DNA of 64,000 nucleotides from a virus (Duplodnaviria > Caudoviricetes). This document shows positions 12,051 to 36,942 of the stretch, piece after piece (positions within the stretch are counted from its first letter, which is position 1; each line of letters begins with the position of its first letter). The stretch spans positions 732 to 64,731 of IMG/VR virus record IMGVR_UViG_3300030330_003867. One strand, 5' to 3'. The notes under the pieces were generated by a model. It saw nothing but the letters and a program-made list of their open reading frames with translations. It did not search any database and was not told where the DNA came from. Made by a program: the position numbers and the translations under genes.

Positions 12051-13445
12051 TTATTCGATAACATCAGAAGGTCCTTGTTGTGAATTTTCTCTCGGTAATT
12101 CACCTGTGCCTACTGAACCATCTTTTCTTTGCTCACCACTTCGCCCTGCGCTTGGTAGGTTAAGAATTTCTAACGATTGATTTAGTGTGAGAATGCCGGA
12201 CTGATAACCCAACGATACTCTTTGCATTGTGTTTAGTGGGGTTTCGGTATCCATAGCGTCAAAGATAATTGTTGGTAAGTCTTGCTTGCGGTGTTCAATT
12301 CCTAACAATTCAAGATGTAGCGAGAATAGCCCCATAACTGCATCTGAAAGTATGCGGTGCATACGGGATATAGCACCGACCGCCCATAGGTTTGCGTTGT
12401 ATGTTGCGGCAAAGGTTGAACCCCGCTCTTGACCTGCGGCTACTCTCGGCACTTGAAGAACGGCGGCAATATCGCCATTTACTGCATCGAGAAATTCATT
12501 ACTGTTTGGTATGGTGTTTTCCAAATCAACATGGTGCAATTGAACATAATGCGGTAGGACAGGTATTTGGTCGCCACGCAAACCCTCAAACAATGAGATA
12601 ACTTCATCCATAATATGAACGAGTCTTTCTTGTTGCTCGGCAGGGTCTTGTATATGCTCAATAGCAGATTTGTCTATTGTTACATACTGCTTAGTCATAG
12701 CGTCTTCAAGAGATAGCCTGTTATTCATCGTGTTATACTTCATGCGTATTGCTTGTTTTAGAGAAGTAAATCGGGATGCGCCCCATATACCATAGGTTTT
12801 ACGGCCTTTGTTATCAACAAACCAATTACTGCGATAATCAATTCGTATGTGCATGATTTCGTTTGCCGGAAATTCTGCTTCGGTTAATTTTGTTTCGCGT
12901 AGCATATATGTTACCGGCCTTGTTATCGGCGTATCTTCATCGGCTACGAAGTAAGAACCAAGCCCGCCGCGCTCATCAACAATTGTGATTTGCTTTACGG
13001 GTAGGCTTTGTAGGTTTGTGATACCGACTCCGGCTTTACCAACAATTTTATTTATGTCGTTACCATACACCATCAGGCCACGCATAGCGTTGATTAGGAA
13101 ATCGTCAAAGTCTAATTCGCTTTCTTCGACTAATTCTCTAATCGCATTTCGGATGCGAGCGTTTTTGCCGCGTGAATAATTAATTTCGTAATTGTTTGCA
13201 GTTAGTGATACTGCACGAACCGCACCGTTCAATTCGGGGTCTAACTTTAACATCGAATCATACAAGTCAAATTCGTTATCAAAATTGCTATCGGTTCTTA
13301 TCTTCTCAGTATCACGGACAATATCGGGTATTCCTGCCGCTACTGAAAACGATTTGTTAGTGGGTAATCTCTTTGTTTGCGCTACCACCGGCTCTTTCTT
13401 TTGAAAAGACCGGAAGAAGGGAAAACGCCTTCGCTCATCAGCCAT
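12051..13445 (-). CDS. Portal protein
   Basis: 464 aa, first gene of the head operon; DPELNGAVR, IMHIR, YG.WG.S, I.AVLQVP and ILTLNQSLEIL motifs of HK97-type portals. Confidence 0.85.
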   Translation of the reverse strand: MADERRRFPFFRSFQKKEPVVAQTKRLPTNKSFSVAAGIPDIVRDTEKIRTDSNFDNEFDLYDSMLKLDPELNGAVRAVSLTANNYEINYSRGKNARIRNAIRELVEESELDFDDFLINAMRGLMVYGNDINKIVGKAGVGITNLQSLPVKQITIVDERGGLGSYFVADEDTPITRPVTYMLRETKLTEAEFPANEIMHIRIDYRSNWFVDNKGRKTYGIWGASRFTSLKQAIRMKYNTMNNRLSLEDAMTKQYVTIDKSAIEHIQDPAEQQERLVHIMDEVISLFEGLRGDQIPVLPHYVQLHHVDLENTIPNSNEFLDAVNGDIAAVLQVPRVAAGQERGSTFAATYNANLWAVGAISRMHRILSDAVMGLFSLHLELLGIEHRKQDLPTIIFDAMDTETPLNTMQRVSLGYQSGILTLNQSLEILNLPSAGRSGEQRKDGSVGTGELPRENSQQGPSDVIE

Positions 13446-13735: not shown

Positions 13736-15145
13736 ATGGGGAAACGCTATCACGGTGGAGAAGACCTTATCGCCCAACACATAAACAAAGGATTCGCAAA
13801 TGATAAAGAATTTGCAGTATTTCTGAACGAATTAGAACCAAGACGTTCTATTGACTCTTGGCGTATCAAAGTCGGCAGGTATCGCAAGGCTAACCCATAC
13901 AAACAATCTTCTGATGAAACAATACATACATACTATGACGAAGGTAAAGACTGTTATTTGACTTTCTTATCACATATTGATAACATATTAGTCATTAGTG
14001 GTGAAGACCATAGAAATATGCGCCGCTCTTATTCTAATGAAGGCGGCGGTTTAACCATTGATGAAATGTGCGCTGAGTATGAAATGGATAGCATTACAAT
14101 GTCTGCCTATATACGCGCATACAATTGGAAACACACCATGAATCCTTTGACCGATGAAGAAATCACTTTGAAGGAAACATCAAGACTTGTTCAAGACTAC
14201 CTAACAATCAAGCGTCAAGAAGTAGTCCTAAAGGCACAGAAGCAATTGAAAAAAGACTTAGAGGCTGACGCAACGGCATGGAGAGAGTTTAGACATACTA
14301 TCTATGACGATTTCCAAACCATTGTGCCGAAGATTAAATCAACGGCTAAAAAACCTAAGACTAAGGCCGCACACGAATATGCTCTTGTCTTATCCCCCAC
14401 CGACCTTCACTTTGGGAAATACGGTTGGAAGGATGAAGTCGGCGAAGAATACGACATGAATATTGCTAAAGAGCGACTTATCGCAAGCACCGAAGCACTA
14501 CTAACTCGACTACCACACCTGCCGGAAAAGATAATCCTAACTGCTGGTAGCGATTGGTTTCATGTTGATAACGACAACGGCACTACAACCAAAGGCACAC
14601 CGCAAGATACCGATGCGACACCTGCTGAAATCTTGATGAAGGGTTGCTCTTTGGCTCGTCAACATATTGATATGCTAAGAAAGGTAGCACCCGTTGATGT
14701 AGTCCTAATGGCCGGTAATCACGACAGGCATACTTCTCTTATGCTTATGATGTATCTTGAAGCGGCATACGAACAATGCGAAGATGTATCAGTAGTAATC
14801 AGCCCTCAATCACGACAATATGTGCAGTATGGCAACAACCTGCTCGGATTTACTCACGGTGATAAGGTTCGACTTAATACGCTACCTGCTATTATGTCTA
14901 ACGAGCAAAGACAGGCATGGGGCGAATGTCGTAATCATGTATGGTTTCACGGACATTTACATCATCTCAAGATTGCCGACACAAACGGTGCTACCGTAAT
15001 TCAATTGCCGAGTCTTAGCGGCCACGATAGATACCACGCTCGTTCCGGCTATGTTATGGAACGCAAAGGTCTGTGCGGCCACATGATAGACAAGACTCTC
15101 GGTGTAGTGGGTAACTTCTTCATACCGGTGGTAAAGGATGAGTAA
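13736..15145 (+). CDS. Calcineurin-like metallophosphoesterase with N-terminal HTH region
   Basis: DLHFG, GSDWFH, AGNHD, FTHGD and FHGHLH motifs. Confidence 0.85.
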   Translation: MGKRYHGGEDLIAQHINKGFANDKEFAVFLNELEPRRSIDSWRIKVGRYRKANPYKQSSDETIHTYYDEGKDCYLTFLSHIDNILVISGEDHRNMRRSYSNEGGGLTIDEMCAEYEMDSITMSAYIRAYNWKHTMNPLTDEEITLKETSRLVQDYLTIKRQEVVLKAQKQLKKDLEADATAWREFRHTIYDDFQTIVPKIKSTAKKPKTKAAHEYALVLSPTDLHFGKYGWKDEVGEEYDMNIAKERLIASTEALLTRLPHLPEKIILTAGSDWFHVDNDNGTTTKGTPQDTDATPAEILMKGCSLARQHIDMLRKVAPVDVVLMAGNHDRHTSLMLMMYLEAAYEQCEDVSVVISPQSRQYVQYGNNLLGFTHGDKVRLNTLPAIMSNEQRQAWGECRNHVWFHGHLHHLKIADTNGATVIQLPSLSGHDRYHARSGYVMERKGLCGHMIDKTLGVVGNFFIPVVKDE

Positions 15146-16634
15146 TACTAATTTTTCTATGGAGAGAAGTAGGAAAGATATTGCCTATTTCTATAAGTGG
15201 CTCGGCTACACATGGGGTAAGCACATTGGAGAATGGATGGACCTATATTCTGATAGAAAGGGCGCATCCGTTCATCGTGTCTGTATTATTGCACCACGCG
15301 ACCATTCCAAATCAACAACCCTTCGTGTTAAATTGTTGCATCAATGCCTTTTTGAAAAAAAGGGTGATGGCTCACCTTTTACCTGTTGGCTTATCTCAGC
15401 GAGTAAAGATACTGCCGCTCAAAGGCTTGAGGAAATACGAGCCGACCTAAAGAAGCACCCACAGTTAAGAAAATACATTAGCCCCTCTAAGGGCAACAAA
15501 TTAGAATTGCATTTTACCAACGGCGCATGGATTCGTGCTACATCTGTTGGTTCTGCAATTCGTGGGGCGCATCCTGCTTGTGTAGCATTTGACGATGTGT
15601 TGGTTGATTCAGACGATACGAACCCTAAAGCCCTGCAATCATGGTATAAGAAAGCAATTATCCCTATGTTAAGCCCCGATTCGTGGTTTTACTGCGTAGG
15701 AACCCCAATGAGTATGGTTGATTTATACCACACGGAAATGTTAGACAACCCCGTTTGGAAATCAGCCGTGTATTCCGCTATCACTAACTATGACGAATGG
15801 CGAGCAAGCGATGGCGAAATAAAACCCGAAGTCCTTTGGGAAGAATATCGAAGTGCTGATTATCTCCTTGAGCAACGAGAAGGCATGGGTGAATTGGCTT
15901 TTGTGCAGGAGTATTTGTGCAGGGTTATTGATGACGAAGCCGCAGTATATCCGAGAGAGTTAGTTAGAAAACATCTCAACATGGATGATGTATTTCAAAC
16001 AGAAAAAGATGATAACTGCAAGTATAGCATTGGGTTTGACCCCGCACACGGTTTAGGAAAGGACTTTTCAGTTATGGTTGTCCTCAAGCAAGACCAAGAG
16101 GGCTTCATCCACTTTGTAAATATGTGGCGGCGTAATGATTTCCCACCCGACAGACAAGCAGACATGATTATCGAATGGAATAAGAGATATGGTTATCCTG
16201 CCTTCGCATCCGAAGATGTAGGATTCCAACAATTATACAAGAGCCTTATTGAGCAAAAGAATGCAAATGTGGATTATCGCGGTAGCAAAGTTAGCAACCG
16301 CACACTAAAGCAGGGAATACTCAATAGACTTCGTGTTTGGTTTGAGCGCGAGTTAATTATATTCCCATACGGCGACCATAATACACGAATGCAAGTGAAT
16401 ACTCTCTTTGACGAATTAGAAACACACGCATGGAAAAACGGTCTTATTGAAGACTTAGGAAAACATAACGATTGTGTAATGGCTTTTGCACACGCAATAG
16501 ACCAATTTACTGCTAAGGGATTTGAAATGCCCGTTATTATGAAAAAGGCAGAAGCCGGAGAATGGCTCGGTGGTAGTGGGTCTAAAATAAATCGAAACTC
16601 AAAAGGTATAGGCGGAAAGGTGATTAACAGATGA
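15138..16634 (+). CDS. terL: Terminase large subunit
   Basis: Walker A APRDHSKST, Walker B VAFDDV, coupling motif VGTP, RNase H-like IGFDPAHG..DFS and HNDCVMA. Confidence 0.93.
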   Translation: MSNTNFSMERSRKDIAYFYKWLGYTWGKHIGEWMDLYSDRKGASVHRVCIIAPRDHSKSTTLRVKLLHQCLFEKKGDGSPFTCWLISASKDTAAQRLEEIRADLKKHPQLRKYISPSKGNKLELHFTNGAWIRATSVGSAIRGAHPACVAFDDVLVDSDDTNPKALQSWYKKAIIPMLSPDSWFYCVGTPMSMVDLYHTEMLDNPVWKSAVYSAITNYDEWRASDGEIKPEVLWEEYRSADYLLEQREGMGELAFVQEYLCRVIDDEAAVYPRELVRKHLNMDDVFQTEKDDNCKYSIGFDPAHGLGKDFSVMVVLKQDQEGFIHFVNMWRRNDFPPDRQADMIIEWNKRYGYPAFASEDVGFQQLYKSLIEQKNANVDYRGSKVSNRTLKQGILNRLRVWFERELIIFPYGDHNTRMQVNTLFDELETHAWKNGLIEDLGKHNDCVMAFAHAIDQFTAKGFEMPVIMKKAEAGEWLGGSGSKINRNSKGIGGKVINR

Positions 16635-16918: not shown

Positions 16919-17228
16919 TTTTTAAAAATTTTGTAAAAAATTTCGCGTGAGGGTAGCCAACACATCGGCACTCACCGCTCTAATATTTGGCGGCTAATAT
17001 GGCCCTGTCTAAGAGGCGGCGGCTTCTTGTGGTGCTTTGCATCCTGTGAGGGGTTTTCTTGCCCTACGCTTGACGCTACGGTATCAGAAACGGCAAGAGC
17101 GACCGCAACCACCGACCGCCAAATCAAGGTCAAATCAGAATCCTTGAATCTATTGTGAAATCGTAAGTCGTGAATTGAATCAGCAGATGTTAACTTTCAC
17201 ATTTGATTCTGAATTAAGAATCAATGGT

Positions 17229-17261
17229 GGGTGGCCGCAGGTTATCCGCCTACGGCCACCC
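17229..17261 (-). terminator. GC-rich stem-loop just downstream of the 466-aa gene
   Basis: Minus strand GGGTGGCCG-T-AGG/CGGATAA/CCT-G-CGGCCACCC; the U.G wobble works only on the minus strand. Confidence 0.7.
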
Positions 17262-17273
17262 GAAATTTGAGCC

Positions 17274-18674
17274 TCAGTAATCGGTTAGATTTCTGATAGC
17301 GTCAAGCAGGTTAGAACCCGCTTGAGCCTTTTCGTTTCCAGCATCTAAGTGATGACGGATTGTGTTCATTACAATAGCCACATAATCAAGGCCTGTCGAA
17401 TCAATGCCGCGAGCCAATCCGTTGATGTCGTGAACCGCTACCCAACCGAGCATATAGCACATACCCGAAGGTGTCTGAATTGGTATGACCCTTCGCTGAA
17501 TTGACGCTGGTAGGTGAACCGTCTTTGGGATTCCCTTTCTTCTTCCCTTGTGGTCTATGGTGAAAGCATCCGGTTGCGGCTTGTAGCCTTCTCGCTGATT
17601 CACACCCTGTCCGAATTTACCATAGGCAGGATAACCGAGCATTCGGTCAAATGTGGTTGATATTCTCGGAGAGCCGTCGTTCATCTCACAATTGACTAAG
17701 CGGTTTGACTCAATGCCTTTCTCAACCACTTGATAACCTGCATCCTTTGTCTTCTGAATCATCTTGATTGAAGGCAATTTCACAACCGAACCCCAACCAC
17801 CAACAGGTTGAGAATTTGAGCGACCCGAACCAGCGATTCGGAAATCCCAAACGACCGGACCGCCACAGGTCGGACACCTGCAATTCTTTTTGATTTCTTG
17901 AGTATCTTCAACCACAGGTAAGCCCGCATCATCATACAGGGTCTTTGGTGGGTGAAGTCTGTCTCTTGATGCTCGGTTGAAATCTTCTGAGCCTCTTTCA
18001 ACAGGTGGATTCAATGCGACTGACGCACCCATGCCAACACCTCTTACGAATGATTGCACACCCGAAGCGGTTGAGCATAGGTGATGGTAGCACCTTAACC
18101 TGTATTCGTGGCGCATTTGCTGACCTTCGCCGGACTTGTCCGTTTTGCTCCTAACTGTCGAAGTATCATACATCCCCGCCGCATTACTTCGGCGGTCAAT
18201 TGCTGACCTTGTGGTTCTTACAACCTTCAACGGTGAATCAAGGACTTCATAGAGTGCTTCAAGTGTCTTTGATGACTTGACGAACCGAGCCGCCTCATTC
18301 CATCTCTCGTCACTGTCTGTCGAATCCCAATGATGGAGTTTCACAACCTCTCCAACCCTGTCGCCAAATACACCATTCGCCGCCCACTTGTTAGCCGTCT
18401 TAACATCTATCGGGCTACCCCAAATCGGGATGAGGTTCGCATGGTCCTTGATTCGTTGAACAATGGCTTCAACCGTGTTTTTCTTTGTCGTGGTTTTGGG
18501 GTGGTTGTGTAGTAGGCTTTGGCCCAACTCCTTCACCGTCTTTGCTGGTAGGGCCAGCAAGGACTTAACGAAGGTAGGCAACAACGCCCCCAACACCACA
18601 ACCGCAGACGGCGCGTTAAGCGCATCTGCGGCAGTCGTTCTTTCTGCTTCACTTTCTCGTATGACTTCCGTCAT
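17274..18674 (-). CDS. Orphan 466-aa protein with Cys/His motifs
   Basis: Long ORF, TATA-like TCATATAC 28 nt upstream, own terminator; RCYHHLC and CRCPTCGG motifs. Confidence 0.75.
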   Translation of the reverse strand: MTEVIRESEAERTTAADALNAPSAVVVLGALLPTFVKSLLALPAKTVKELGQSLLHNHPKTTTKKNTVEAIVQRIKDHANLIPIWGSPIDVKTANKWAANGVFGDRVGEVVKLHHWDSTDSDERWNEAARFVKSSKTLEALYEVLDSPLKVVRTTRSAIDRRSNAAGMYDTSTVRSKTDKSGEGQQMRHEYRLRCYHHLCSTASGVQSFVRGVGMGASVALNPPVERGSEDFNRASRDRLHPPKTLYDDAGLPVVEDTQEIKKNCRCPTCGGPVVWDFRIAGSGRSNSQPVGGWGSVVKLPSIKMIQKTKDAGYQVVEKGIESNRLVNCEMNDGSPRISTTFDRMLGYPAYGKFGQGVNQREGYKPQPDAFTIDHKGRRKGIPKTVHLPASIQRRVIPIQTPSGMCYMLGWVAVHDINGLARGIDSTGLDYVAIVMNTIRHHLDAGNEKAQAGSNLLDAIRNLTDY

Positions 18675-18993
18675 GCCCCGCCGTTCCTATAGTAGTATAT
18701 GAATACTGAGTTTTGTTACATAAGCCCCGTTTCCGAATTTCCGGCTCGCAGTGCATCGTTTATACCCCTTGAGTCGTTACATAATCGCAATTTTTCTGAA
18801 CGGACTTTTTGCACAACGCGACCCATTTTTTCGGCCCGTTGCTTATATACTCCCTTAGTTACATAATTTCTTGACCTTGAAATTTGGGCTAATTTCGCAG
18901 GTTTCTGATGTTACATAATATCGGTTTCTTAAAAAAGAGCGAAGTTACATAATAGTGATTAATAAAAAAAGGACAAAGTTACATAACTTGGTT

Positions 18994-19024
18994 GGGGGGC
19001 AGGGATGAAGCGACCCTACCCCCC
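18994..19024 (-). terminator. Stem-loop after the 129-aa gene
   Basis: Minus strand GGGGGGTAGGG/TCGCTTCAT/CCCTGCCCCCC with a U.G wobble. Confidence 0.7.
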
Positions 19025-19038
19025 ATTAAGTTACATAA

Positions 19039-19428
19039 TCAGAACAGGTTAGAATTCACTATTACCTCAAGGTCTGTGCAACCTTGATGAGAGCCTGTGA
19101 TTTCTTCGCCAGCATATAGGTGCGTGGCCGGAATCTCATAGTTACCTAATGCGTGGTGGTGGATTTGGAATCCTTCGATTGCGTTTTGTATATCTGCGAT
19201 GTCTTCATCCGCCATCCTCATTGTTACATAATCTGTTCGTGTCCTGCCCGAAGGTGTTAACTTCTCAATCCACATTTCCATGAAGTGTTTTCCATCGGGG
19301 CTCATTACCAGCCGCCATGATGCGCGGTTCGTGTCTGTTGAATCCACCCCCGCCCTGTGTGCTTCGTTATCTCTTGAGGCACTTGCGCCCCTTGTAGTGA
19401 TTCGGAAGGTCATTTCAATACAACTCAC
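19039..19428 (-). CDS. Hypothetical protein (possible PC4-like ssDNA-binding fold)
   Basis: Beta-beta-beta-alpha pattern RLVMSPDGKHFMEMWIEK...DEDIADIQNAI; the fold call is weak. Confidence 0.45.
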   Translation of the reverse strand: MSCIEMTFRITTRGASASRDNEAHRAGVDSTDTNRASWRLVMSPDGKHFMEMWIEKLTPSGRTRTDYVTMRMADEDIADIQNAIEGFQIHHHALGNYEIPATHLYAGEEITGSHQGCTDLEVIVNSNLF

Positions 19429-19624
19429 AATTCATGTTTACATCTTCTGAGATGTGGGCTATGACTACCGCCTCAATATCGGGGTCATCTTGTAGGTCTG
19501 TGGACCATGCTGACTCCGGCTGAGTCCTTCGCATATTAGGGCCAATCATCTTAACGATGATTAGCGCGTTAATGAGCGATTGCTTTCGTTCTTCGTGCTT
19601 CTTTTCTCCTGCCTCGTTGGACAT
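19415..19624 (-). CDS. Hypothetical 69-aa protein (true start MSNEAG...)
   Basis: The longer track ORF (to 19777) only adds repeat-derived YVT motifs; a TATA-like site lies about 28 nt before 19624. Confidence 0.55.
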   Translation of the reverse strand: MSNEAGEKKHEERKQSLINALIIVKMIGPNMRRTQPESAWSTDLQDDPDIEAVVIAHISEDVNMNCELY

Positions 19625-20493
19625 ATTGAAGGCTAACAGGCCCTCGCTTAAGAACCTGCCTGTTACATAATATGTTACATAATTTCTATGATTTAGCGAA
19701 GTTACATAATATTTTAGTGGAATCGAGAATGTTACATAATTTTTTGCGAGTCCGGCCCGCTTCTGAGAGGAAGTCATAGTATATAATATGCACGATTGAG
19801 CAATCTCGATTTAGAGTTACATAATGCGCCAAAATAAAGTTACATAATTTCGGGGTGTTTTTCGTGGTTTAGGGCGACCTAAACACCACACAAAACCGCT
19901 ATACTGCGAGCCTGTTCACCACAATTCAGCCAATTTTCGGATTTCTATTATGTAACTAATGAAACTCGTTATCGTTATACCCCCTAATCGAGACATAGCC
20001 ATTTCGTTAGTTACATAATAGCCAAAAACCTCAAAAAAAGGACCTAAAACCCCAATAGTATTATGTAACTTTTTTTTCGGGCATTATGTAACTCATTGTA
20101 ACATCCAATCCAATATTATGTAACCCTATCAAAAAATTATGTAACCATATTATGTAACAAAAAAAATCCGCGCGCGTGTGTGTGTGGGCGGCGTTACATA
20201 ATAAAAGTTACATAAGAAAAAAGTTACATAAAAAAGGTTACATAATAAGGCAGATAAAATTAGTTACATAAAAAAACGTTACATAATTCACGATTATAGT
20301 TACATTTAGTTACATAAAAAAAGGGTGCAGAAAAAAAGAAGGTTACATAATTTTTTAAATCAGAAAAAAAAGTTACATAAACTTTTGAATTAAACTAAAG
20401 TTACATAATGCGTAAAAAAGTTACATAATAATGTTACATAACAGGAGAATTGCACTAAGATACTATTATATACTATGAAAAAAATGGTATATT

Positions 20494-20844
20494 ATGGACA
20501 GACACACACCCACCCGCGAACAAAAAATAAACAGCCTATTTGGTTTGAAAGATTCAAAACCGACCTGTATAGAAGAAGGATTTGAAACCATCATTGATGG
20601 ACATATCATGTCCGAATCAGACCTACGCCTAATCAGAAGGGCCTTGATTCATTACTACACCCGAATTGATATTCAGACAGCCACACAGAAGGCCGAAGAA
20701 AAAAGGCGGGTTGCATATTTAGGCCAAACAATCGGCGCGCACCTTGACCTCAACGAATATTTCCGATGCAAGAACACGATGACTGAAGAAGAAATGGAAG
20801 AACATTACAGGAGAAAAAACAATGCCTCAGAAGAAAAAAATTAG
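20494..20844 (+). CDS. Hypothetical early protein
   Basis: TTATATAC at 20466, exactly 28 nt before the ATG (leaderless). Confidence 0.65.
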   Translation: MDRHTPTREQKINSLFGLKDSKPTCIEEGFETIIDGHIMSESDLRLIRRALIHYYTRIDIQTATQKAEEKRRVAYLGQTIGAHLDLNEYFRCKNTMTEEEMEEHYRRKNNASEEKN

Positions 20845-21346
20845 GATTAGATATTTTACCTGCCGCCGATGCGGTAAAGAATTTGAGCAGAATCTCAAGG
20901 GTCGCCCGCGCGTCATGTGTGAGCCATGCAAAAAATTGCCCGCTAAAAATCCTCGACACGGTATCAAGAGAAAAAACGGTCAGCACATGGGCGGTCGCGG
21001 TAAAGTAAAACTGCGCGCCTGTGGTTGTCCTTCTCGCAAGCACCGCCCATCGTGTCCGAAGTCAAGGTCATTCACCCCACCAAAAGAAGACGACATCAAC
21101 GAGCGTATCGCGTGGGTCAATAAAAATAAGGCCGAGAAAAGAGAAGCCGCCCGACTCAAGCGAGCGGCAAAAATCGCCGCGCAGATGCGCGACTACACGC
21201 GCACGATGCAACCAACAAACGGGCTTGATATTCCCGTCTATCTTTCCTGCTCATCATGTAATGCTCGCGCACCTGTGCGCGACTTCGTGATGTGGAACGC
21301 CGCCGAGAAAGTCGGCATCTGTAAAAACTGCAAGGAGAAAAAATAA
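20822..21346 (+). CDS. Basic multi-Zn-finger protein
   Basis: CRRC...CEPC, CGC...HRPSC and CSSC...CKNC motifs; K/R-rich. Confidence 0.65.
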   Translation: MPQKKKIRIRYFTCRRCGKEFEQNLKGRPRVMCEPCKKLPAKNPRHGIKRKNGQHMGGRGKVKLRACGCPSRKHRPSCPKSRSFTPPKEDDINERIAWVNKNKAEKREAARLKRAAKIAAQMRDYTRTMQPTNGLDIPVYLSCSSCNARAPVRDFVMWNAAEKVGICKNCKEKK

Positions 21347-21558
21347 TGACTAAAAATATTGAGTATTGGAAAAAGCCCTGTCCTAAATGTAAAGAAATCC
21401 GTATTTTACAAACCGGATTTATCCGAGAGGAATTTATTTGCTGTGAATGTAAAATCATTTTCAGTTATCACCCGTATGATGAAGACAACAAAAGACAGGT
21501 CATAGAATGGCGAAAAATCAAGGGTTATGATTTGGGAAAAAAAGTAATGTGGAATTGA
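21346..21558 (+). CDS. Small Zn-ribbon protein
   Basis: CPKC...CCEC; AAGGAG ribosome-binding site. Confidence 0.6.
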   Translation: MTKNIEYWKKPCPKCKEIRILQTGFIREEFICCECKIIFSYHPYDEDNKRQVIEWRKIKGYDLGKKVMWN

Positions 21559-21663
21559 AAAAGGAGAGAAAAAATAATGACTAAAAAATTATTTGAAATA
21601 GACATACCGACAGAAAAAATGTGGGCGCGATTTGAGCGCAGATTGAAGGAAATGTGTGAAGAA

Positions 21664-21700
21664 ATAGTGGGGGAGTAAATCTCCCCCCTATTTTTTTTTT
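21664..21700 (+). terminator. Stem-loop plus T-tract
   Basis: ATAG(T)GGGGGAG/TAAAT/CTCCCCCCTAT followed by about 10 T. Confidence 0.75.
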
Positions 21701-21841
21701 GCGATTCATATTATGTAACTTAACATTATGTAACTTCGTGCGCTCGCGCCCGCGCCCGCGAGCGTTACATAAAAAAATAGGGCTGAAAAAAAATATAAAG
21801 TTACATAATAAATCCGTAGCACAGATAAGAAGTTACATAAT

Positions 21842-21880
21842 AACTCACGATAAAAAAAATTAAATACTATCACTATATAC
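21842..21880 (+). promoter_or_regulatory. Early promoter: AACTCACGAT-N8-TATA
   Basis: AACTCACGAT AAAAAAAA TTAAATAC, with a second CTATATAC 29 nt before the ATG at 21902. Confidence 0.7.
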
Positions 21881-21901
21881 TTCATATCGAGGTGAAAAAT
21901 C

Positions 21902-22174
21902 ATGGTATCTGTAAGAGCAATAGCAAATAATCAATTTATTATTTCGGCGGATGATAGGAAAGTGTTTCAGTCCTATAACTCCAAAGTCGCAGAAAAAAAA
22001 GACGGGCAAATTTATTTGATTGAGCCATATTGGAATATGTATAGCGCAACCACAAATAAATACTTGTTGAAATTTTTGGGCGAATCGAGTATCAAAGATG
22101 TTCGGGCTAAAGTCGAATCGGGCGAATACAAAGTGCTAACCAAAAAGCATCTGTATCATCCGAGCAACCGTTGA
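21902..22174 (+). CDS. Small conserved phage-type protein (VFQSYNSKVA motif)
   Basis: GAGGTGA ribosome-binding site; FQSY.S..A...YS.TT.KYL..FL pattern. Confidence 0.6.
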   Translation: MVSVRAIANNQFIISADDRKVFQSYNSKVAEKKDGQIYLIEPYWNMYSATTNKYLLKFLGESSIKDVRAKVESGEYKVLTKKHLYHPSNR

Positions 22175-22213
22175 GTAAAAAAAACAACGGCTGAAAAAAT
22201 CTGAGTAACGTAA

Positions 22214-22256
22214 GCCGACTCGTTCCCTTCGGGGGGCGGGTCGGTGAATTTTTTTT
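22214..22256 (+). terminator. 14-bp stem with UUCG tetraloop plus T-tract
   Basis: GCCGACTCGTTCCC/TTCG/GGGGGCGGGTCGGT (four G.U pairs), then a T run. Confidence 0.8.
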
Positions 22257-22280
22257 GCAGAAAAAAAGAAGTTACATAAT

Positions 22281-22310
22281 AACTCACGATAAAAAAACTT
22301 ATATACTATT
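22281..22310 (+). promoter_or_regulatory. Early promoter: AACTCACGAT-N8-TTATATAC
   Basis: Exact match, directly preceded by a GTTACATAA copy. Confidence 0.8.
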
Positions 22311-22426
22311 AATTATTAGTATATATTGTGGGAGAACTGAAAAATCTCCCGACCAACCTATTGAGCCTTTGAAGTCAAGGGCGATGATAGCGGTTGAGTG
22401 TTTGAAAAAAAACGAGGTGAAAAAAT

Positions 22427-23446
22427 TTGGATTATTTTAGACAAAGAATCGGTAATACGATTCCTGCTCACATACTAATGGGGGAGGAAGCCGTTGGCCG
22501 AACAAATGAAGAAGTAATGAAGAACGCAGGTTTGGACTTTACCGTTGAGAAGCGGCGAATCCCACACCCAGACACAGGGGAATTGCTACCCGAAAGGTAT
22601 AGCGTAAATTTCCGGTCCGACACAGGGCAACCGTTAGGTGCGGTTGGTAAAAATTATACCAACCTTCAACCAACAGAAATGTTTTCGGTTGCTGATGGAT
22701 TAGTCGGCGCAGGTCAAGCGGAGTGGGAAAGAGTCGGGCAAACAGATAACGGCGCGAGAATTTTCGCGCAGTTAGCACTACCCGAACATATCACCATTGG
22801 TGATAACGACCGTTCCAACGCTAAAATCTATCTATCGAATGCCTATGATGGTTCGCAAGCCTTTAGAGTCCTTCCGACTCTTGAGCGTCTGTTTTGTAGT
22901 AATCAGACCAGCGCGGTCCTTCACAACATGAAGGAAATGGGAATCAAACCATCTGATTTAGTTATTCGTCATTCGTCAAGAATGCACGACAAAATCAAGC
23001 ACCTTAGCAGGGCTTTGAAATTGACTAACACCCTAAATCAGCGTTGGGCCGAGCAAGCCAACGGTTTGCTTGAAGTCCACATGGACATGGATGATAGGAT
23101 TAAGTTCTATATAGACACAGGTTATCTCGGAAAGGTTGATGCGGAACGCACTAAAAAAGATACGACTAATATTTATGGTCTATCAGCACAGGGCAACCGT
23201 AAACTTGACGAATTGCTTGAGTTAGAAACTGCACCAACGAACACCACAGGCGGAATGAGCGACACTGCATGGGCGGCGTATAACACGCTGACCGAACACG
23301 TAACGCATCATTCATTCCAAAAGGCTAACGCCGTCTTTGGTTCCGAAGGAAGCATCAAACAAAAGACCGCAGAAAACGCGGTCTTTGGTGCTGGCGACAA
23401 GATGATGACTAAGGCTTGGGGCAGACTCGTTGATGCACACCTATAA
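22427..23446 (+). CDS. DUF932-family protein (phage/plasmid-like)
   Basis: AGLDFTVEK, VGKNYTNLQ, GQTDNGARIF, LSNAYDGS, RLFCSNQ and AWAAYNTLTE motifs; TTG start after GAGGTGA. Confidence 0.85.
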   Translation: MDYFRQRIGNTIPAHILMGEEAVGRTNEEVMKNAGLDFTVEKRRIPHPDTGELLPERYSVNFRSDTGQPLGAVGKNYTNLQPTEMFSVADGLVGAGQAEWERVGQTDNGARIFAQLALPEHITIGDNDRSNAKIYLSNAYDGSQAFRVLPTLERLFCSNQTSAVLHNMKEMGIKPSDLVIRHSSRMHDKIKHLSRALKLTNTLNQRWAEQANGLLEVHMDMDDRIKFYIDTGYLGKVDAERTKKDTTNIYGLSAQGNRKLDELLELETAPTNTTGGMSDTAWAAYNTLTEHVTHHSFQKANAVFGSEGSIKQKTAENAVFGAGDKMMTKAWGRLVDAHL

Positions 23447-23449
23447 TCT

Positions 23450-23870
23450 TCATGCTATCTTTATAGCGGCAACCGGATGAGCGACCGTGAATCTCACAGG
23501 TCGTAAAAATATAACCCCAATAAAAAACGGGGTATGCTTTGAGAATCAGCCAATCGTGAGCCATAGCGACAGTCGAGCAGACTCGCCCACCCTGCCTTCG
23601 GGTAATTTGGGCTTGAGTCGCCTTCATAGATTCGCGGCTACGAATAAATGATACTCCGCTTCGGGGGGTGCGACAACCCCCCGCCCTCTTTTTTTCAAAC
23701 ACTATTTTTTTATTATCACATTCACCCTTCAAAAAAAACAGGCATGGTTTTTCCGTGAACCTGCCCGAAGACTCTTGGTGGTGCTTGAGTCGTTCTCGCG
23801 TGGCGTTAAATTCTGAAAGACCACGCGGGCGGGCGCACGATAGAAAAAATCGTGCCTAAAAAAAGGGCTG
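23450..23870 (+). ncRNA. Putative structured non-coding RNA region
   Basis: Gene-free stretch with at least 7 stem-loops (one with a UUCG loop) and a hairpin-T terminator at 23663-23695. Confidence 0.4.
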
Positions 23871-23900
23871 AAAAAAACAAAAAAACAAGGAGAAAAAATA

Positions 23901-24122
23901 ATGAGTAAAAAAATATGCAAATGCGGAGAAGAAATGAAACAAAACATCATAACGAATTACACGGTTATTTACTGTGAAGCGATTTACAAAGACGCAAAAG
24001 AATGCTTTGAAAAAAATGACTGTTGGGCTTGTGGTGATTATTACAATTTAGGTAGTAGCGATTGTTGCGCTGATGTGCGAGCGCGACACACGCGGGGCGA
24101 AGCAACCGGACCGAGATGGTGA
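23901..24122 (+). CDS. Small Cys-rich protein
   Basis: AAGGAG ribosome-binding site; CKC, CWAC and CC motifs. Confidence 0.55.
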   Translation: MSKKICKCGEEMKQNIITNYTVIYCEAIYKDAKECFEKNDCWACGDYYNLGSSDCCADVRARHTRGEATGPRW

Positions 24123-24382
24123 AAAAAATGCTGACTAAAAAAATAGACTTAACTGAATTTTGGAACTTGCTAAAGATAGCCGACCGGATTAGTGAGGGTG
24201 ATTGGATTGCTGCAATATCATGCGGTGGGCTTGGTCGCTCATGTGGTTATCTTCGTGATAGCCGAATGTATCTTGATGAAGACGACCTACCGCCGCTTTA
24301 TGGTGATGATATGTATGCTGACGCTTTCGACAACGGATTCAACCAACGCGCATACAATGAGCGCGGTTGGTTCAGAATGTAA
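24116..24382 (+). CDS. Hypothetical protein
   Basis: Overlaps the upstream stop; plus-strand operon. Confidence 0.5.
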   Translation: MVKKMLTKKIDLTEFWNLLKIADRISEGDWIAAISCGGLGRSCGYLRDSRMYLDEDDLPPLYGDDMYADAFDNGFNQRAYNERGWFRM

Positions 24383-24410
24383 AACTCACGATAAAAAAGA
24401 CTATAAACTA
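24383..24410 (+). promoter_or_regulatory. Early promoter: AACTCACGAT-N8-CTATAAAC
   Basis: TATA lies 29 nt before the ATG at 24430. Confidence 0.8.
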
Positions 24411-24429
24411 TGAACGGAGAGAATATATT

Positions 24430-24642
24430 ATGACTAAAAAAGAATCATACAACGAAGAATGGATTGAATACTACCAATACCTTGAGGAATTGAGGGCATC
24501 CGGCGAAACTAATATGTTTGGTGCAACACCTTATCTCCAAAGGGATTTCGACCTTGAAAAAGACGAAGCCCGCGAAGTGCTATCTTCATGGATGGAGAAT
24601 TACTCTCGTTTGGTATATCATGGAATAATAAATAGGAAGTAA
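24430..24642 (+). CDS. Small phage protein (LRASGETNMFGA motif)
   Basis: Motif familiar from small phage proteins; leaderless start at 24430. Confidence 0.65.
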   Translation: MTKKESYNEEWIEYYQYLEELRASGETNMFGATPYLQRDFDLEKDEAREVLSSWMENYSRLVYHGIINRK

Positions 24643-24664
24643 AAAAAAACGGAGAGTAAAAATT

Positions 24665-30139: not shown

Positions 30140-30315
30140 TGCGGTTTCGTTAATTCTTTTTTTACTTCAAAGGTAGTTAGGAATACCTACCTATCTTTAC
30201 ATCTCTTTGAAGGAATAAAATAAATACACAACAGGCTCGCAGTAGCACGATTATTTCTTTTTCTATTTTTTCAACACATTGAAACAATTAAGAAGGGGAG
30301 AATGCACGATAAAAT

Positions 30316-30681
30316 ATGACGAGAAGGCGAACAATGAACGAGGCGTATAGATTCCTCAAAAGAAACGGTGGAGAAGCAACGACACCGGAAGTGCATGAAT
30401 GGTTAAGAAAAACTGCGACATTCCATTTACCCGACCTAAACACATTGGGTTCGTTGTTATCGAGATGTCCTCTATTTGAGAAGGTCGAGAGAATCCCTAT
30501 CAAGATAGAAGGCGGTAGCCGTTCCACGACTACCATTTGGCGAGCGAGGTCGCTACGAGAGATTGTTGATAGAGCCATGATAACAAATTCAAGCGGTAAA
30601 AATTTACCAGACTTTTTCCGACAGGCCATTGAAGAAGAAAGGGGGAGATTAAATGCAGAAAATAGTATGGTTGAAGAATGA
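30316..30681 (+). CDS. Winged-HTH protein (DUF3860-like)
   Basis: FLKRNGGEATTPEVHEWL...PDLNTLGSLLSR..LFEKV. Confidence 0.65.
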   Translation: MTRRRTMNEAYRFLKRNGGEATTPEVHEWLRKTATFHLPDLNTLGSLLSRCPLFEKVERIPIKIEGGSRSTTTIWRARSLREIVDRAMITNSSGKNLPDFFRQAIEEERGRLNAENSMVEE

Positions 30682-31396
30682 TGTATTGTCTGAATCCACG
30701 CATCTAATTATTGTGCAGGAGAACGAGCATCCGAGTCATTCGGCATTCATGGCAGGTATGGCTATCTTGAAAAAAACAGGCATAGAAAATCCTATTGCCG
30801 AAATCTATTCATCGGATTTAGAAATAGATGACGACAATATTTTTCCCGACCCCATCCCTGTTTGTTGGTTGATGTATGAAACATACAACGAATTAGATGA
30901 GCGTTGTTGGGTTCTAAGGATGACCGGACAACCACAGAAGCCTAATGTTCTATTCAAGGTGATGGATTGGTTGTTGCCGGAATTAGAAGATAAAGGACTT
31001 GAGATTATCACTTGTCTATCGTATGCGTGTGAAACAGAAAAATTAGGCATGGGGGATTTGTATGTTTATGATTGGGCTATCGAAGCCCGTAAAGGCGTGA
31101 TAATGACTACCAACAAAGGACTAATCACAGACACGATACCTGTTGATGGTTTCTCATGGTCTATCCCTATGGCGGCAAAGGCGATACTGCCGGACATAGA
31201 GGGATTATTCACAATAAATATCAAAGCCGACACTTTAATAGACCGCAAGGCGGCGAATACACTTTGCCGCTTCTTGTCTGATACTCACGACTTGACGCAT
31301 GAGCAATTGATAATAGATGAATTGTATGATATATTAAACAATCAGTATAAAATTGATGAGCCATTTTTAGGGGGAATGTTCGATGAAGATATTTGA
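30653..31396 (+). CDS. PAC2/proteasome-assembly-chaperone-like protein
   Basis: Order of motifs matches the PAC2 family: IAEIYS, MYE, VL.M.GQPQ, D.LL.EL...G..IIT and IDRKAA..L..FL. Confidence 0.55.
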   Translation: MQKIVWLKNDVLSESTHLIIVQENEHPSHSAFMAGMAILKKTGIENPIAEIYSSDLEIDDDNIFPDPIPVCWLMYETYNELDERCWVLRMTGQPQKPNVLFKVMDWLLPELEDKGLEIITCLSYACETEKLGMGDLYVYDWAIEARKGVIMTTNKGLITDTIPVDGFSWSIPMAAKAILPDIEGLFTINIKADTLIDRKAANTLCRFLSDTHDLTHEQLIIDELYDILNNQYKIDEPFLGGMFDEDI

Positions 31397-32720
31397 TACG
31401 CTACACAAATTCGTTCAAGACAACCATTATGTTGATGTTGAAGATAAGTTAGACATATTCATCTGTTCTATTGGCGCACACATTTTCAATGCGCTTAACA
31501 AGTGTAGCCGATGCGACTTCGACCCCGATAGCCCGTTGATAAATTATGAAGAAGGGGATTACGCAATCGAGGCTTGTCCTTTGCGTCATCCGAATATGCC
31601 CTTTTACACACCTATGGCTCAATTGCCGGACACGCGCATACACATACTAATTAGAGGCAACAAGGGTTCGGGTAAATCCGTTCTAATCAATCTGTTCTTA
31701 GCAGAAAGAACAGGGCTTCTTTATTATCAAAATGCAGACTTCGGAGAGGGATTTAGAACCATGCTTGCGCCTAACTCTATCACAGAAGCAGGTATGTTTG
31801 GTTCTGTTGATGAAGAAGGAGAAATTGTGGGTCGGCCTTTGGCGAGGGAGATGTGCGGCGGATTTTTAGGCTTTGAAGAATTTTCATCAATGTCTGACGC
31901 GGCTAAGAAGGACCATAGCCTCGACATGAAGAATCAATTGCTCACTTCTCTTGATAACGGCAGGGTGCAGAAGGCCATGCGTAGCGGTTGGGTTCGATAC
32001 ACTACACGCTACACAGTATGGGCTGGAACACAACCAGCACGATTTGAATTAGATTCGGGGCTTGACCGAAGATTCTTCATCATAGACATACAGATGACTC
32101 CCGAAAAAGAAAGGTTATTCAAACAGGCTCAACACCGACAGGCGAACACTTCGCCGGAGATGCGATTAGACATAGCCAATAGAACCATAGCGATTCGCAC
32201 ATGGTTTAGGCAACGCATGGAACAGGCGGTAGCAAAACCACCAACGGGTATTATTTTTGATGACGACTTAGCGGAATGGATTGACCGACCCGATGTTCGT
32301 TCTTTTGAGGCAGACCTATTCCGAAGGCTCGCTATTGGCTACGCTATGATGCAGGAAAATTACGAAGGCGGCGGCCCATTGATTGTTAAACTTGATGAAA
32401 AATTAAGGGCTATTCTTAATCAATCGTTGGATATGAGGCGTAGGGTTATGGATGCAGACCTTGAATTAATACGCTCGACCTTTTGGATGAAAGACCTACC
32501 AAAGTCGCAGTTAGTCAAGGAGATTAGCAGAATGATTACAAATGGCGACTATCAAATGGCTAAGGTGTGGATAGAGGAAAACCTTGAGGGTCGAGCATGG
32601 TATTCAGAATACACCCCAACAAAAACAGGTCGGGGTAGGAAAGGTGTTACTTGCAGATTCGGTAATCCTGCTGAACCTGTTAAGACGCAAAAGTGGGGTG
32701 AAAATAATGAGCAAAACTAA
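31383..32720 (+). CDS. mcm: MCM-like AAA+ replicative helicase (short form)
   Basis: Walker A IRGNKGSGKS, Walker B LGFEEFSSM, LLTSLDNGRV, WAGTQP, arginine finger LDRRF, sensor-2-like FRRLAIGYA. Confidence 0.8.
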   Translation: MKIFDTLHKFVQDNHYVDVEDKLDIFICSIGAHIFNALNKCSRCDFDPDSPLINYEEGDYAIEACPLRHPNMPFYTPMAQLPDTRIHILIRGNKGSGKSVLINLFLAERTGLLYYQNADFGEGFRTMLAPNSITEAGMFGSVDEEGEIVGRPLAREMCGGFLGFEEFSSMSDAAKKDHSLDMKNQLLTSLDNGRVQKAMRSGWVRYTTRYTVWAGTQPARFELDSGLDRRFFIIDIQMTPEKERLFKQAQHRQANTSPEMRLDIANRTIAIRTWFRQRMEQAVAKPPTGIIFDDDLAEWIDRPDVRSFEADLFRRLAIGYAMMQENYEGGGPLIVKLDEKLRAILNQSLDMRRRVMDADLELIRSTFWMKDLPKSQLVKEISRMITNGDYQMAKVWIEENLEGRAWYSEYTPTKTGRGRKGVTCRFGNPAEPVKTQKWGENNEQN

Positions 32721-33036: not shown

Positions 33037-33659
33037 GAACAAGACGAGAGATAGAAGACCGGATGGTGCGTGAGGATGACCCATTTACCGTTGAGGTTCT
33101 AAGGTGGGTTCTCGATGGTGGTTGTCCGATGTGCAAACACAATGACCGAAAGGAATACGAGATACAGATTCACACAGAAGAAATAGGCCCTCATTTTTTA
33201 GAAGTGAAGCATGGATGGGCCGAAGGAACAATCATGGAACACATGGAGAATCATATTGATTACGACCCGTCTGAGGCCGAACACATAGAGGATGCACGAA
33301 GACAATCTATCAACACATTAGATGCCGCAGAAGACATTGTATTCCGTATTCGTGGCTATCTTGATGAGTTGGAAGAAGAAAAGGAAGCAAGCGGTGATGG
33401 TATCACATCAGAATTTGTAGCCGATGCCGCCCGTCTGATTGCACAGGCCAATTCAAGTCTAAAATTGGTGGGTCAATTGAAGAAAGAAATAGGCGTTGAT
33501 TCTCAATTGCTTCTCGCGGAAGCACGACTCAATCAGATGAATAGAATACTCGTTGATACTTTGATTGAACAACCCGAATTATTAGACCGTATAGAAAATA
33601 AAATGCGGTTGTTGAATGAACCAAATATAATAGACGCTAAATTTAAGGTGGTTGAATGA
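33033..33659 (+). CDS. Zn/HTH plus coiled-coil protein; terminase small subunit candidate
   Basis: CPMCKH...H...H followed by long helices and a C-terminal IIDAKFKVVE. Confidence 0.45.
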   Translation: MRTRREIEDRMVREDDPFTVEVLRWVLDGGCPMCKHNDRKEYEIQIHTEEIGPHFLEVKHGWAEGTIMEHMENHIDYDPSEAEHIEDARRQSINTLDAAEDIVFRIRGYLDELEEEKEASGDGITSEFVADAARLIAQANSSLKLVGQLKKEIGVDSQLLLAEARLNQMNRILVDTLIEQPELLDRIENKMRLLNEPNIIDAKFKVVE

Positions 33660-33913
33660 AGACATGGCGTAGTGGTTCTCGCAGAAGCCTATGGGCGAGG
33701 CCGATTTACGAACACGAATGGCCTAAGTTAATCCAAGCCATGAAGGATGATGGCCTTCTCGCCGTCATACAATCCGATGGCGTTAGGTGGTATGTGGGCG
33801 GCTACAAACTAACCGATGTTTCCGTGTGTGAAGCATGGAACATTAACCGAAAACAGATGGATAGGCTCAAGGATTACATCTTAGTCAATGACCCGTTTAT
33901 GAGGGATGAATAA
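33656..33913 (+). CDS. Hypothetical protein
   Basis: Translationally coupled at both ends. Confidence 0.6.
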   Translation: MKTWRSGSRRSLWARPIYEHEWPKLIQAMKDDGLLAVIQSDGVRWYVGGYKLTDVSVCEAWNINRKQMDRLKDYILVNDPFMRDE

Positions 33914-34572: not shown

Positions 34573-34748
34573 GTCTAACAACCTGTTTTATTTTACTTCT
34601 AATTCCGTTATTAGGACCGATTCTTCAATTATTTATAGTGCTTATTTTTGGTGCGCCTAAATACATTGTAAATCTTAAATCTCCCTCTAATGTGGATTCA
34701 GATGCTACACTTGAGGGCATGATGTGGTTTGATTTGGGAACTGATTAA
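34563..34748 (+). CDS. Small membrane protein
   Basis: N-terminal hydrophobic stretch of about 25 aa. Confidence 0.5.
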   Translation: MGMSLTTCFILLLIPLLGPILQLFIVLIFGAPKYIVNLKSPSNVDSDATLEGMMWFDLGTD

Positions 34749-34774
34749 ATACCCATCATTGATTCTTAAATGTT

Positions 34775-35182: not shown

Positions 35183-35210
35183 AACTCACGATAAAAAAAC
35201 TTATATACTA
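35183..35210 (+). promoter_or_regulatory. Early promoter: AACTCACGAT-N8-TTATATAC
   Basis: TATA lies 28 nt before the ATG at 35229. Confidence 0.8.
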
Positions 35211-35228
35211 TGGGTATGATGTAAATAT

Positions 35229-35961: not shown

Positions 35962-35962
35962 A

Positions 35963-36166: not shown

Positions 36167-36236
36167 TTCCGATTTGTACTAAGTGCAACCAATCAATCGG
36201 CTATTGTTCTACGTATTCTTGTAAGAAGGTGGAGAG

Positions 36237-36930: not shown

Positions 36931-36942
36931 GGGGGGTTTGGA

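Follow-up and report, generated by a model that had tools for sequence, protein, structure and literature searches.

We examined a stretch of viral DNA, hereafter the window, that is 64,000 nucleotides long and comprises bases 732-64731 of one 64,731-bp virus record (IMG/VR record IMGVR_UViG_3300030330_003867); the virus itself we denote W. Past its large terminase gene (15138-16634), in a region where the direction of the genes reverses, a single 9-bp word, GTTACATAA, occurs in 39 exact copies (31 on the plus strand and 8 on the minus strand), all of which lie within positions 18715-22279. The first copy begins at 18715, and the last occupies 22271-22279. Given dinucleotide-preserving shuffles of the sequence, the word would be expected 0.87 times on average and three times at most. 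The entire 64,731-bp record contains zero copies outside this interval. A preliminary description of this DNA had reported about 39 exact 9-mers in 3.6 kb and none elsewhere, and the count bears it out.

The copies are strikingly uniform. Between 18500 and 22500, only one variant with a single mismatch (GTTACCTAA, at 19141) is found, as compared with the 39 exact copies; nine other single-mismatch variants are scattered over the rest of the window. The consensus extends slightly beyond the word, to aa-GTTACATAA-t, the next base being T in 30 of the 39 copies. The preliminary description had taken the site for a near-palindrome (GTTAC/ATAAC). The symmetric part of the word is TTA-CA-TAA, and the 10-mer palindrome GTTACATAAC is present just twice in the window, so that the claim is true only of the two copies that are followed by C. 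The spacing of the copies is irregular, ranging from 12 to 440 bp, and they occur in both orientations. Because of this irregular spacing the array is not CRISPR-like, in agreement with the preliminary description: a CRISPR array has repeats of 24-48 bp at a regular period, whereas the repeated word here is 9 bp long.

The sites form at least five clusters over 3.6 kb. Cluster A comprises seven exact sites, all on the plus strand (18715..19038), between the start of the leftward gene p466 (ATG at 18674) and the end of the p129 open reading frame (ORF). A lone plus-strand site (19223..19231) falls within the p129 ORF, immediately before an ATG that is internal and in frame. Cluster B (19662..19847) consists of six plus-strand sites that flank, on both sides, a leftward TATATACT box (19778-19785, minus strand). 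An inverted arrangement follows. Its reverse arm (19948..20158) has minus-strand sites at 19948, 20061, 20084, 20116, 20137 and 20150, and one plus-strand site at 20010; its centre (20159..20192) is a run of eight A's followed by a GC-rich tract of alternating purines and pyrimidines, ccgcgcgcgtgtgtgtgtgggcggc; and its forward arm (20193..20441) has 12 plus-strand sites, 13-33 bp apart and separated by A-tracts. The direction of the genes flips at this centre. Cluster D (21711..21840), which follows the p116-p174-p70 genes and a terminator hairpin at 21669-21687, contains two reverse sites (21711 and 21726), a GC hairpin at about 21741-21764, and three forward sites (21764, 21800 and 21832). 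The last site (22271-22279, plus strand) stands upstream of a DUF932 gene.

Only about 45% of the array region is non-coding, and just one site, that at 19223 in the p129 ORF, falls within a credible ORF, provided that p120 is taken from its internal ATG at 19625. The long p120 ORF (19415-19777, minus strand, 120 aa) begins with 40 residues that are simply translated array sites, the four sites at 19662-19739 making its 'YVT' repeats. Since the N-terminus consists of translated sites, the start of the long frame is doubtful; the real start of p120 is probably ATG 19625, or else the ORF is no gene.

The composition of the DNA also changes across the array. The AT skew rises from -0.135 at 18-20 kb to +0.24 at 20-22 kb, and the cumulative GC skew is lowest at 19-21 kb. 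Skew and gene direction therefore do flip near 20170, as first described. However, the skew flip coincides with the change of coding strand, and so it is by itself no pointer to an origin of replication. The sites had also been described as mostly sharing one orientation. This is correct, with 31 of 39 on one strand, but the majority orientation is independent of the strand of the local genes.

We now consider the placement of the sites relative to promoters. The promoters of W look archaeal in type, judging by their sequence, with TATA boxes and transcription factor B recognition elements (BRE). Boxes of the form TATATACT occur nine times in the window, compared with 2.15 expected, and six of the nine lie within the array region; sigma-70-like promoters are not enriched in the window (11 found versus 13.4 expected). 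At p466 a TATA-like element, CATATACT, occupies 18693-18700 on the minus strand, and at p116 a TATA box, TTATATAC, occupies 20466-20473, with the ATG at 20494. In these two units the ATG falls 26-28 nt past the start of the TATA element (28 nt at p116). The p90 promoter (21842..21881, plus strand) consists of a AACTCACGAT box, 8 nt, and a TATA region with TTAAATAC at 21860. The promoter of the DUF932 gene (22271..22307, plus strand) has a AACTCACGAT box at 22281-22290 and the TATA box TTATATAC at 22299-22306. The nearest upstream GTTACATAA (the last of the forward arm, in the case of p116) ends 24, 19 and 19 bp before the TATA elements at 20466, 21860 and 22299, respectively. That is, the sites stand in a fixed relation to these promoters.

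The AACTCACGAT box occurs in six exact copies, all on the plus strand (21842, 22281, 24383, 25419, 28496 and 35183), in agreement with an earlier claim of a six-copy promoter element, and it is found 8 nt upstream of a TATA element at 21842 and 22281. Only these two copies have GTTACATAA upstream, which suggests that W has two classes of promoter.

The remaining gene content agrees with the look of the promoters. W is an uncultured marine tailed virus whose host is probably archaeal. Besides the terminase, it encodes a portal (12051-13445), a tape measure (54664-57600), a family-B DNA polymerase (41422-43671), an RFC-type clamp loader of the small-subunit type (36943-37902), and a PCNA-like protein. 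The polymerase is nearest to those of haloarchaeal tailed viruses, at about 24% identity. GenBank phages include no close relative of W: identity to the terminase is about 24% at most, and nothing there matches the helicase-like gene. No relative of the terminase was found among 185,579 species genomes, and a scan of the same genomes for three neighbouring copies of GTTACATAA returned 92 scattered, unrelated matches, which pinpoint no host. No Rfam family matched within the window.

Relatives of W can be found, however, among uncultured viruses. With the terminase, 187 relatives were found in IMG/VR, 66-98% identical, and the stretch just downstream of the terminase was examined among them. 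Their loci and records are denoted by L- and G-numbers, and some bear both (L004 is G003, L046 is G001, and L145 is G012). One of them, L001, aligns with W at about 83% identity in the control region, which allows the sites to be compared one by one. Among 33 aligned GTTACATAA sites, 32 are exact and in place in L001; all seven sites of cluster A are kept, as is the lone site in the p129 ORF. The motif columns of the alignment are 97% identical, compared with 82.9% for the other columns, so that the sites are conserved beyond their flanks. We conclude that the GTTACATAA sites are under purifying selection. Their number and position nevertheless turn over: there are 39 sites in W and 42 in L001, neither p116 nor p70 has a counterpart in L001, and the homology between the two viruses breaks at 20428 and at 21356, at the edges of clusters.

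Arrays of the same kind occur across the virus family, but with different words. In the few kilobases past the terminase gene, relatives carry 10-70 exact copies of other 9-12-mers, such as GTTACAATA, ACTACATAAC, ACTACAAAAC, GGTTACAAAAG and AATCCAAAT, and the words share a YTACA/CCA plus A/T-rich pattern. The search for analogous arrays that the preliminary description had called for is therefore positive. The same comparison does not support, family-wide, its suggestion of a dimeric binder that reads a palindrome; ACTACAAAAC and GGTTACAAAAG are not palindromic. The word is GTTACAATA in L004 (41 copies), whose terminase is 96% identical to that of W, ACTACATAAC in L039 (62 copies), TTACTACAAAT in L046 (59 copies), and AACTACAAAAC in L054, L057, L063 and L064 (up to 63 copies). 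It is AAGTTACAAAT in L076 and L079, ATGCTACAAAT in L080, AAGGTTACAAAAG in G006 and G010, cGGTTACAAAAA in G017, AAAGTACAAAAA in G007, GGTAACAAATTTG in G008, GCGTAACATAA in G011, AAATCCAAAT in a clade of 15 members, CCCTACGAAG in L077, and TCACGGCCAAAA in L074. In complete relatives the copies are confined much as they are in W: in G001, 49 of 49 fall within 33181-39302, and in G002, 23 of 27 fall within 42507-48033, in each case just past the terminase gene.

The layout of the arrays remains recognisable as the word changes. In L054 each unit opens, in the order of transcription, with a terminator hairpin; then come 5-12 distal copies, some 40 bp of gap, 1-3 proximal copies that are inverted, the TATA and the gene. 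Convergent 11-bp pairs, which are palindromic operators, lie 8 bp upstream of the TATA. When spacings are pooled over the arrays, direct neighbours show a peak at 14 bp and convergent pairs one at 11 bp, the latter being true palindromic operators. The arrangement of a reverse arm followed by a forward arm is also present in G011, G006, L054 and G017, and the centres in L054, G006 and G011 are conserved neither in sequence nor in composition. L054 and L046 have about ten clusters, spread over 6-7 kb.

Three other repeated elements were seen in these comparisons. The G012 clade (L145, 5200-5560) has no separate array word; it has a tandem TATA-box-like element, GGGTATATAAAC / cTTATATACC, with seven exact copies of the 8-mer in 314 bp upstream of one early gene. 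This run may represent stacked promoters or a sink for the TATA-binding protein (TBP) and transcription factor B (TFB). The element GGCTAATTTCGC(A) recurs in control regions despite their different array words: at 18885-18900 in the window, in three copies at 5280-5480 in L054, and at about 4520-4545 in G006. The copy in the window follows, by about 40 nt, a rightward TATATACT box at 18844 with no ORF behind it. The element may be either a conserved site for a host factor or the beginning (5' end) of a small RNA. Finally, ACGCTTGCGA is found in 8-9 copies, one per gene and in a single orientation, in the middle region of L104, L103, L042 and L145, where it is probably a promoter or terminator element of middle genes.

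The arrays also change hands. As far as the end of the terminase, W and G003 have about 91% DNA identity, and they then share no homology from 16959 to 24645. Similarly, L046 and L042 match at 92% identity as far as the gene that follows the terminase, at which point L046 has a 7.7-kb cassette with an array and L042 a 5.3-kb cassette without one; homology resumes at the p174 homologue. In a quick terminase tree, the near-identical tips L046, L042 and L060 differ in word class. On the evidence of these alignments, the early region is a cassette that can be swapped together with its arrays, and array-less versions exist in some close relatives. The unit of exchange spans from the gene after the terminase to the p174/F5 homologue, in viruses that are otherwise 91-92% identical in DNA. 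That the word changes between near-identical backbones (for example, from GTTACATAA in W to GTTACAATA in G003, whose terminases are 96% identical) argues for a co-evolving partner of the word within the cassette.

What, then, are the arrays for? We infer that the sites bind a protein and that the bound protein controls transcription, and we infer a candidate for its gene. In the reading that we prefer, and to which we give roughly an even chance, the copies of GTTACATAA would form a homotypic array at which a lineage-specific protein binds and thereby controls the early cassette. The preliminary description had offered three readings, namely an iteron-type origin, a terminal-repeat or injection-pause region, and a multi-site operator array. 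The last of these fits best, as the sites lie between terminators and TATA-type promoters, 19-24 bp before three TATA boxes. The predicted protein would coat the non-coding spacers between small early genes, each with its own promoter and terminator. Neighbouring molecules would be 13-16 bp apart and would hence spiral around the helix, and the inverted groups of sites would bracket the divergent control point near 20170. From its position just upstream of the BRE and TATA elements, the coating protein would set the activity of the early promoters as a block. The specificity of the binder would differ between virus lineages; it is more likely to be encoded by the virus than by the host, and the best candidate would be p466, the gene at the left edge of the array.

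Several observations weigh against a binding-site array of this kind. The near-perfect identity of 39 sites is unusual for operators, whose affinities are normally graded, and is more typical of iterons, centromere sites or polar signals. The two leftward promoters in the window differ from the rightward ones, with gaps of 14 and 30 bp and with the sites antisense. Moreover, once the words are aligned on their TACA core, the majority orientation points from the terminase towards the replication genes in every TACA-type class, and it does so regardless of whether the local genes are on the plus strand (as in the right half of the array in W) or the minus strand (as in L054, L039 and L046). A constant orientation along the genome axis is not predicted by a purely promoter-centred model, and none of the explanations that we considered accounts for it in full. 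As for the proposed binder, p466 has no recognisable DNA-binding fold: its AlphaFold2 (AF2) model has a predicted local distance difference test (pLDDT) score of 58.6, and a Foldseek search of the PDB gave nothing at E <= 0.001. Arrays of the AATCCAAA type in L035, L027 and L030 occur without a p466-like gene, and the co-occurrence of array and p466 elsewhere may be plain physical linkage within one swapped cassette.

The case for p466 (17274..18674, minus strand) is as follows. It is the first gene leftward of the array, and it encodes a basic orphan protein (isoelectric point, pI, 9.3) with a zinc-ribbon-like motif, CPTCGG. All 12 of the TACA-type array cassettes that we examined contain a positional analogue, 254-466 aa long, and array-less cassettes lack one. 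Where similarity among the analogues is detectable, it goes with a shared 5' half of the word: GTTACA in W, L004, L076 and G006, and ACTACA in L039, L046 and L054. The analogue in L074 contains a Pfam SAP domain, a support that is limited to L074 and does not extend to p466 of W. Iterative hidden Markov model (HMM) searches did not unite the positional analogues into one family, and the best VIA-align hits to p466 (Z 7.5) were helical bundles only and not interpretable. From sequence, p466 is the best remaining candidate for an array-binding protein, and an unproven one. Two further features were seen. Residues 233-289 of the analogue in L054 (4342-5229, minus strand) weakly match the coat protein of the levivirus PP7 (PDB 6n4v, E 1.2e-4; Pfam Phage_coat, E 0.043), and the end of the AF2 model of p466 likewise consists of a beta-sheet with two helices after it.

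Other candidates lie some 8 kb to the right of the array. There, p121 (30316..30681, plus strand) is a basic protein predicted to be a winged helix of the DUF3860 / PDB 2od5 type. Its AF2 model (pLDDT 82.2) has the topology H1-b1-H2-H3-b2-b3, and Foldseek ranks 2od5 best (E 1.5e-4, TM score 0.73 on the target), followed by winged helices of TFE/TFIIE, Cdc6/Orc1, PadR and MarR. DUF3860 (PF12976) is matched by 7 of 18 orthologues of p121, with a best E of 2.1e-6, the copy in W itself not being matched. Sequence and modelled fold thus agree in placing p121 among the DUF3860 / 2od5 winged helices. The next gene, p247 (30653..31396, plus strand), is hypervariable and lies directly upstream of a P-loop NTPase gene (31383-32720). 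Only language-model features mark its product as PAC2-like, and it probably does not read DNA. In the comparison of W with G003, the interval 30302-31384, which holds p121 and p247, is the sole island without nucleotide homology in a block (26.5-37 kb) that is otherwise 79-98% identical. The same hypervariable pair stands upstream of the conserved P-loop NTPase in relatives family-wide (L092-L135); each of the two has been exchanged independently in viruses whose helicase-like gene is 92-99% identical, and p121 is sometimes replaced by an unrelated protein of about 310 aa.

As readers of the array, p121 and p247 are weakened by this very pattern, since both vary independently of each other and of the helicase. 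For example, GGTTACAAAA is common to G017 and G006, but the identity between their p247 proteins is 24%, and p247 is in any case acidic (pI 4.3). G006 has no adjacent p121, and the p121 proteins of G007 and G017 are 82% identical but the words of these viruses differ. Conversely, W and L092 have the same word, yet on our reading of the alignment they differ in most of the exposed residues of the putative p121 recognition helix. A last candidate, p174 (20822-21346), is a very basic (pI 10.4) zinc-ribbon protein with two CxxC pairs at each end. An iterative HMM search places members of its family at 23 loci throughout the virus family, where they are usually the first gene past the arrays. Its homologue, however, is 91% identical in nucleotides between L046, with 59 sites, and the array-less L042, and we rejected it as the reader.

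It is important to weigh the binding-site array against other functions that might produce a similar pattern. One possibility, which we think unlikely, is that the array serves as a replication origin, or as an origin and a control region for early promoters in one, with the sites acting as iterons for an initiator, encoded by the virus, that would load the P-loop helicase. The copies are indeed exact and numerous, as in iterons. Nevertheless, a 9-bp word in clusters dispersed over 3.6-7 kb, before up to about ten separate genes, is atypical. The inverted arms surround a centre at which gene direction and skew flip, a layout repeated in G011, G006 and G017, and G006 has a 1.6-kb gene-free control region full of sites; but the skew flip is confounded by the flip of coding strand, and no AT-rich unwinding element was found at the centre, which is GC-rich beyond its A-run in W and different in L054, G006 and G011. 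The non-homologous island between W and G003 would suit an initiator, being made of p121 and p247 directly upstream of the helicase-like gene, and the modelled fold of p121 resembles, among others, the winged helices of Cdc6/Orc1. Yet no replication gene adjoins the array, the p121-p247-helicase genes are 8 kb away with no site nearby, and, as noted, neither p121 nor p247 tracks the helicase, the other, or the word (the G017/G006 pair being the plainest case). The helicase itself had been presented as part of an MCM-based replisome. That is not confirmed: by sequence, the 445-aa protein at 31383-32720 matches no MCM or other helicase family in Pfam, PHROGs, NCBIfam or the sequences of the PDB, and in Pfam it gives at most a weak match to the AAA_16 P-loop. 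Finally, close relatives have an array-less cassette (L042) or TATA-like arrays (G012), and G012 retains the p121-p247-helicase triad. A binder from the host, such as a transcription factor, a chromatin protein or a nuclease-modulating factor, is a less probable reading still, in which there would be no viral binder and the cassettes would be tuned to host lineages. No viral protein was found that is both universal and word-tracking, and a host factor would already be present at time zero, when early promoters fire; host Sta1, for instance, reportedly activates SIRV1 promoters. Early cassettes are the host-interaction part of phage genomes and swap as units, and the word of G012, being itself TATA-box-like (GGGTATATAAAC), suggests that host TBP/TFB is collected there. 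On the other hand, words differ between viruses whose terminases are 96% identical, and exact 9-11-mers in 40-70 copies go beyond the usual look of host-factor sites.

Two further readings seem to us more doubtful. The arrays might be recombination linkers, short identical repeats on either side of each small early gene through which relatives could acquire, drop or exchange genes, as in the promoter-early stem-loop (PeSL) cassettes of T4-type phages, or centromere or tethering sites for a carrier state; we consider this improbable. The differences between W and L001 in the genes between clusters (p116 and p70), the breaks at 20428 and 21356, and the turnover of sites (39 in W, 42 in L001) favour linkers, and the 14-bp direct spacing and exactness of the sites resemble centromere-type arrays. 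But an identity of 9 bp is too short for efficient homologous recombination, site-by-site conservation indicates selection on the word itself and not on mere repetition, and no ParA/ParB-like or integrase genes were seen in family searches of the proteins of W. Least probable of all, and very much so, is an element for packaging, genome ends or DNA entry, such as a pac-like array, a zone of terminal repeats, or an injection pause. The array always starts 1.5-3.3 kb past the large-terminase gene, and its orientation bias tracks the genome axis and not the local gene strand. Many IMG/VR contigs stop within the array, and G007, which is 96% complete, is broken inside it. Such breaks, however, are expected as assembly artefacts in DNA that is repeat-dense and variable among strains, and the near-complete G000, G001 and G006 neither break nor end in the array and, according to IMG/VR, have no end repeats, which tells indirectly against the terminal-repeat and injection-pause proposal. 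Nor do 40-70 sites over several kilobases before promoters resemble known pac or cos sites, and the array-less close relatives presumably package normally with a near-identical terminase.

We return to the array as a set of predicted binding sites for a lineage-specific early regulator, of which a more specific form may be stated. Early control might be 'programmable': one fast-evolving viral protein, p466-like or delivered with the virion, would read a 9-12-bp word, all 10-70 copies of which would be rewritten together when the cassette changes, and the coated array would act as an enhancer or super-operator and possibly also, like a baculovirus homologous region (hr), as an origin. We hold this version only tentatively and think it unlikely as it stands.

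No description of such arrays was found in the literature searched, and the earlier label 'undescribed' is plausible. No known analogue is a family into which the array can be filed, although several share features with it. Baculovirus hr elements are imperfect palindromes of about 30 bp, dispersed around the genome, that are bound by IE-1, act on early promoters, and have been discussed as origins. They are similar in presenting many clustered copies of a short viral site, in non-coding DNA at early promoters, to a virus-specific binder (which is predicted here); they differ in that the word here is 9-12 bp, mostly non-palindromic, and confined to one cassette of 3.6-7 kb, and there is no IE-1 homologue. 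The ribbon-helix-helix protein omega of pSM19035 binds cooperatively to abutting asymmetric sites of 7 bp, in direct and inverted runs of 7-10 upstream of promoters. The arrays resemble these heptads in having short, well-conserved asymmetric sites, in direct and inverted runs just upstream of promoters, but their centre-to-centre spacing peaks at 14 bp, their spacers are A-tracts, they contain up to 70 sites, and no ribbon-helix-helix protein was identified. In SV40 and polyomavirus (GAGGC pentamers) and in the ori/crr of P4 (TGTTCACC octamers), 6-16 sites form one or two clusters by an AT-rich element, and the helicase-linked initiator also regulates early transcription. Common to these systems and ours are short words that cluster, inverted or dispersed, where early genes are controlled divergently; here, by contrast, there are 39-70 sites in up to ten clusters, no AT-rich centre is conserved, and the helicase-linked proteins do not track the word. 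In the tandem operators of F55 in SSV1 and the VP16/TAATGARAT system of herpesviruses, the binder is known and each promoter has from two to a few copies. They too repeat a short word upstream of early promoters for a virus-specific factor (again, predicted here), and the copy number of the arrays is an order of magnitude higher.

The closest comparison among viruses of archaea is with repeated intergenic elements. The intergenic repeats of halovirus HF2 are described as units of 58 bp and 29 bp, each with a promoter, one per intergenic region (PMC8707807), and the conserved regulatory motif of early genes in Sulfolobus viruses is described as a promoter consensus (PMC11065993). The arrays resemble both of these, which are repeated intergenic elements ahead of early genes in archaeal viruses, serve the transcription machinery of the host and mark early and anti-defence genes. 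They are unlike both in that the promoter in W (TATATACT, or AACTCACGAT-N8-TATA) is separate from the arrayed 9-mer, of which there are 1-12 per spacer.

Little is known about the timing of genes or the start of replication in tailed viruses of uncultured marine archaea. The arrays offer dozens of natural variants in which the word changes and the layout is constant, so that the binder and its recognition code could be found by binding assays and by co-variation. They mark the early cassette, which is the expected home of host-takeover and anti-defence genes, and they explain the frequent breaks in assembly at this locus. If the binder is viral, the arrays would supply ready-made orthogonal pairs of protein and DNA word; if it is instead a host protein, the words would serve as a sequence tag for predicting the hosts of uncultured viruses. 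Should early control prove to be programmable, the family would provide a natural series of matched protein and word pairs, and the array would be the first enhancer-like element described for archaeal tailed viruses.

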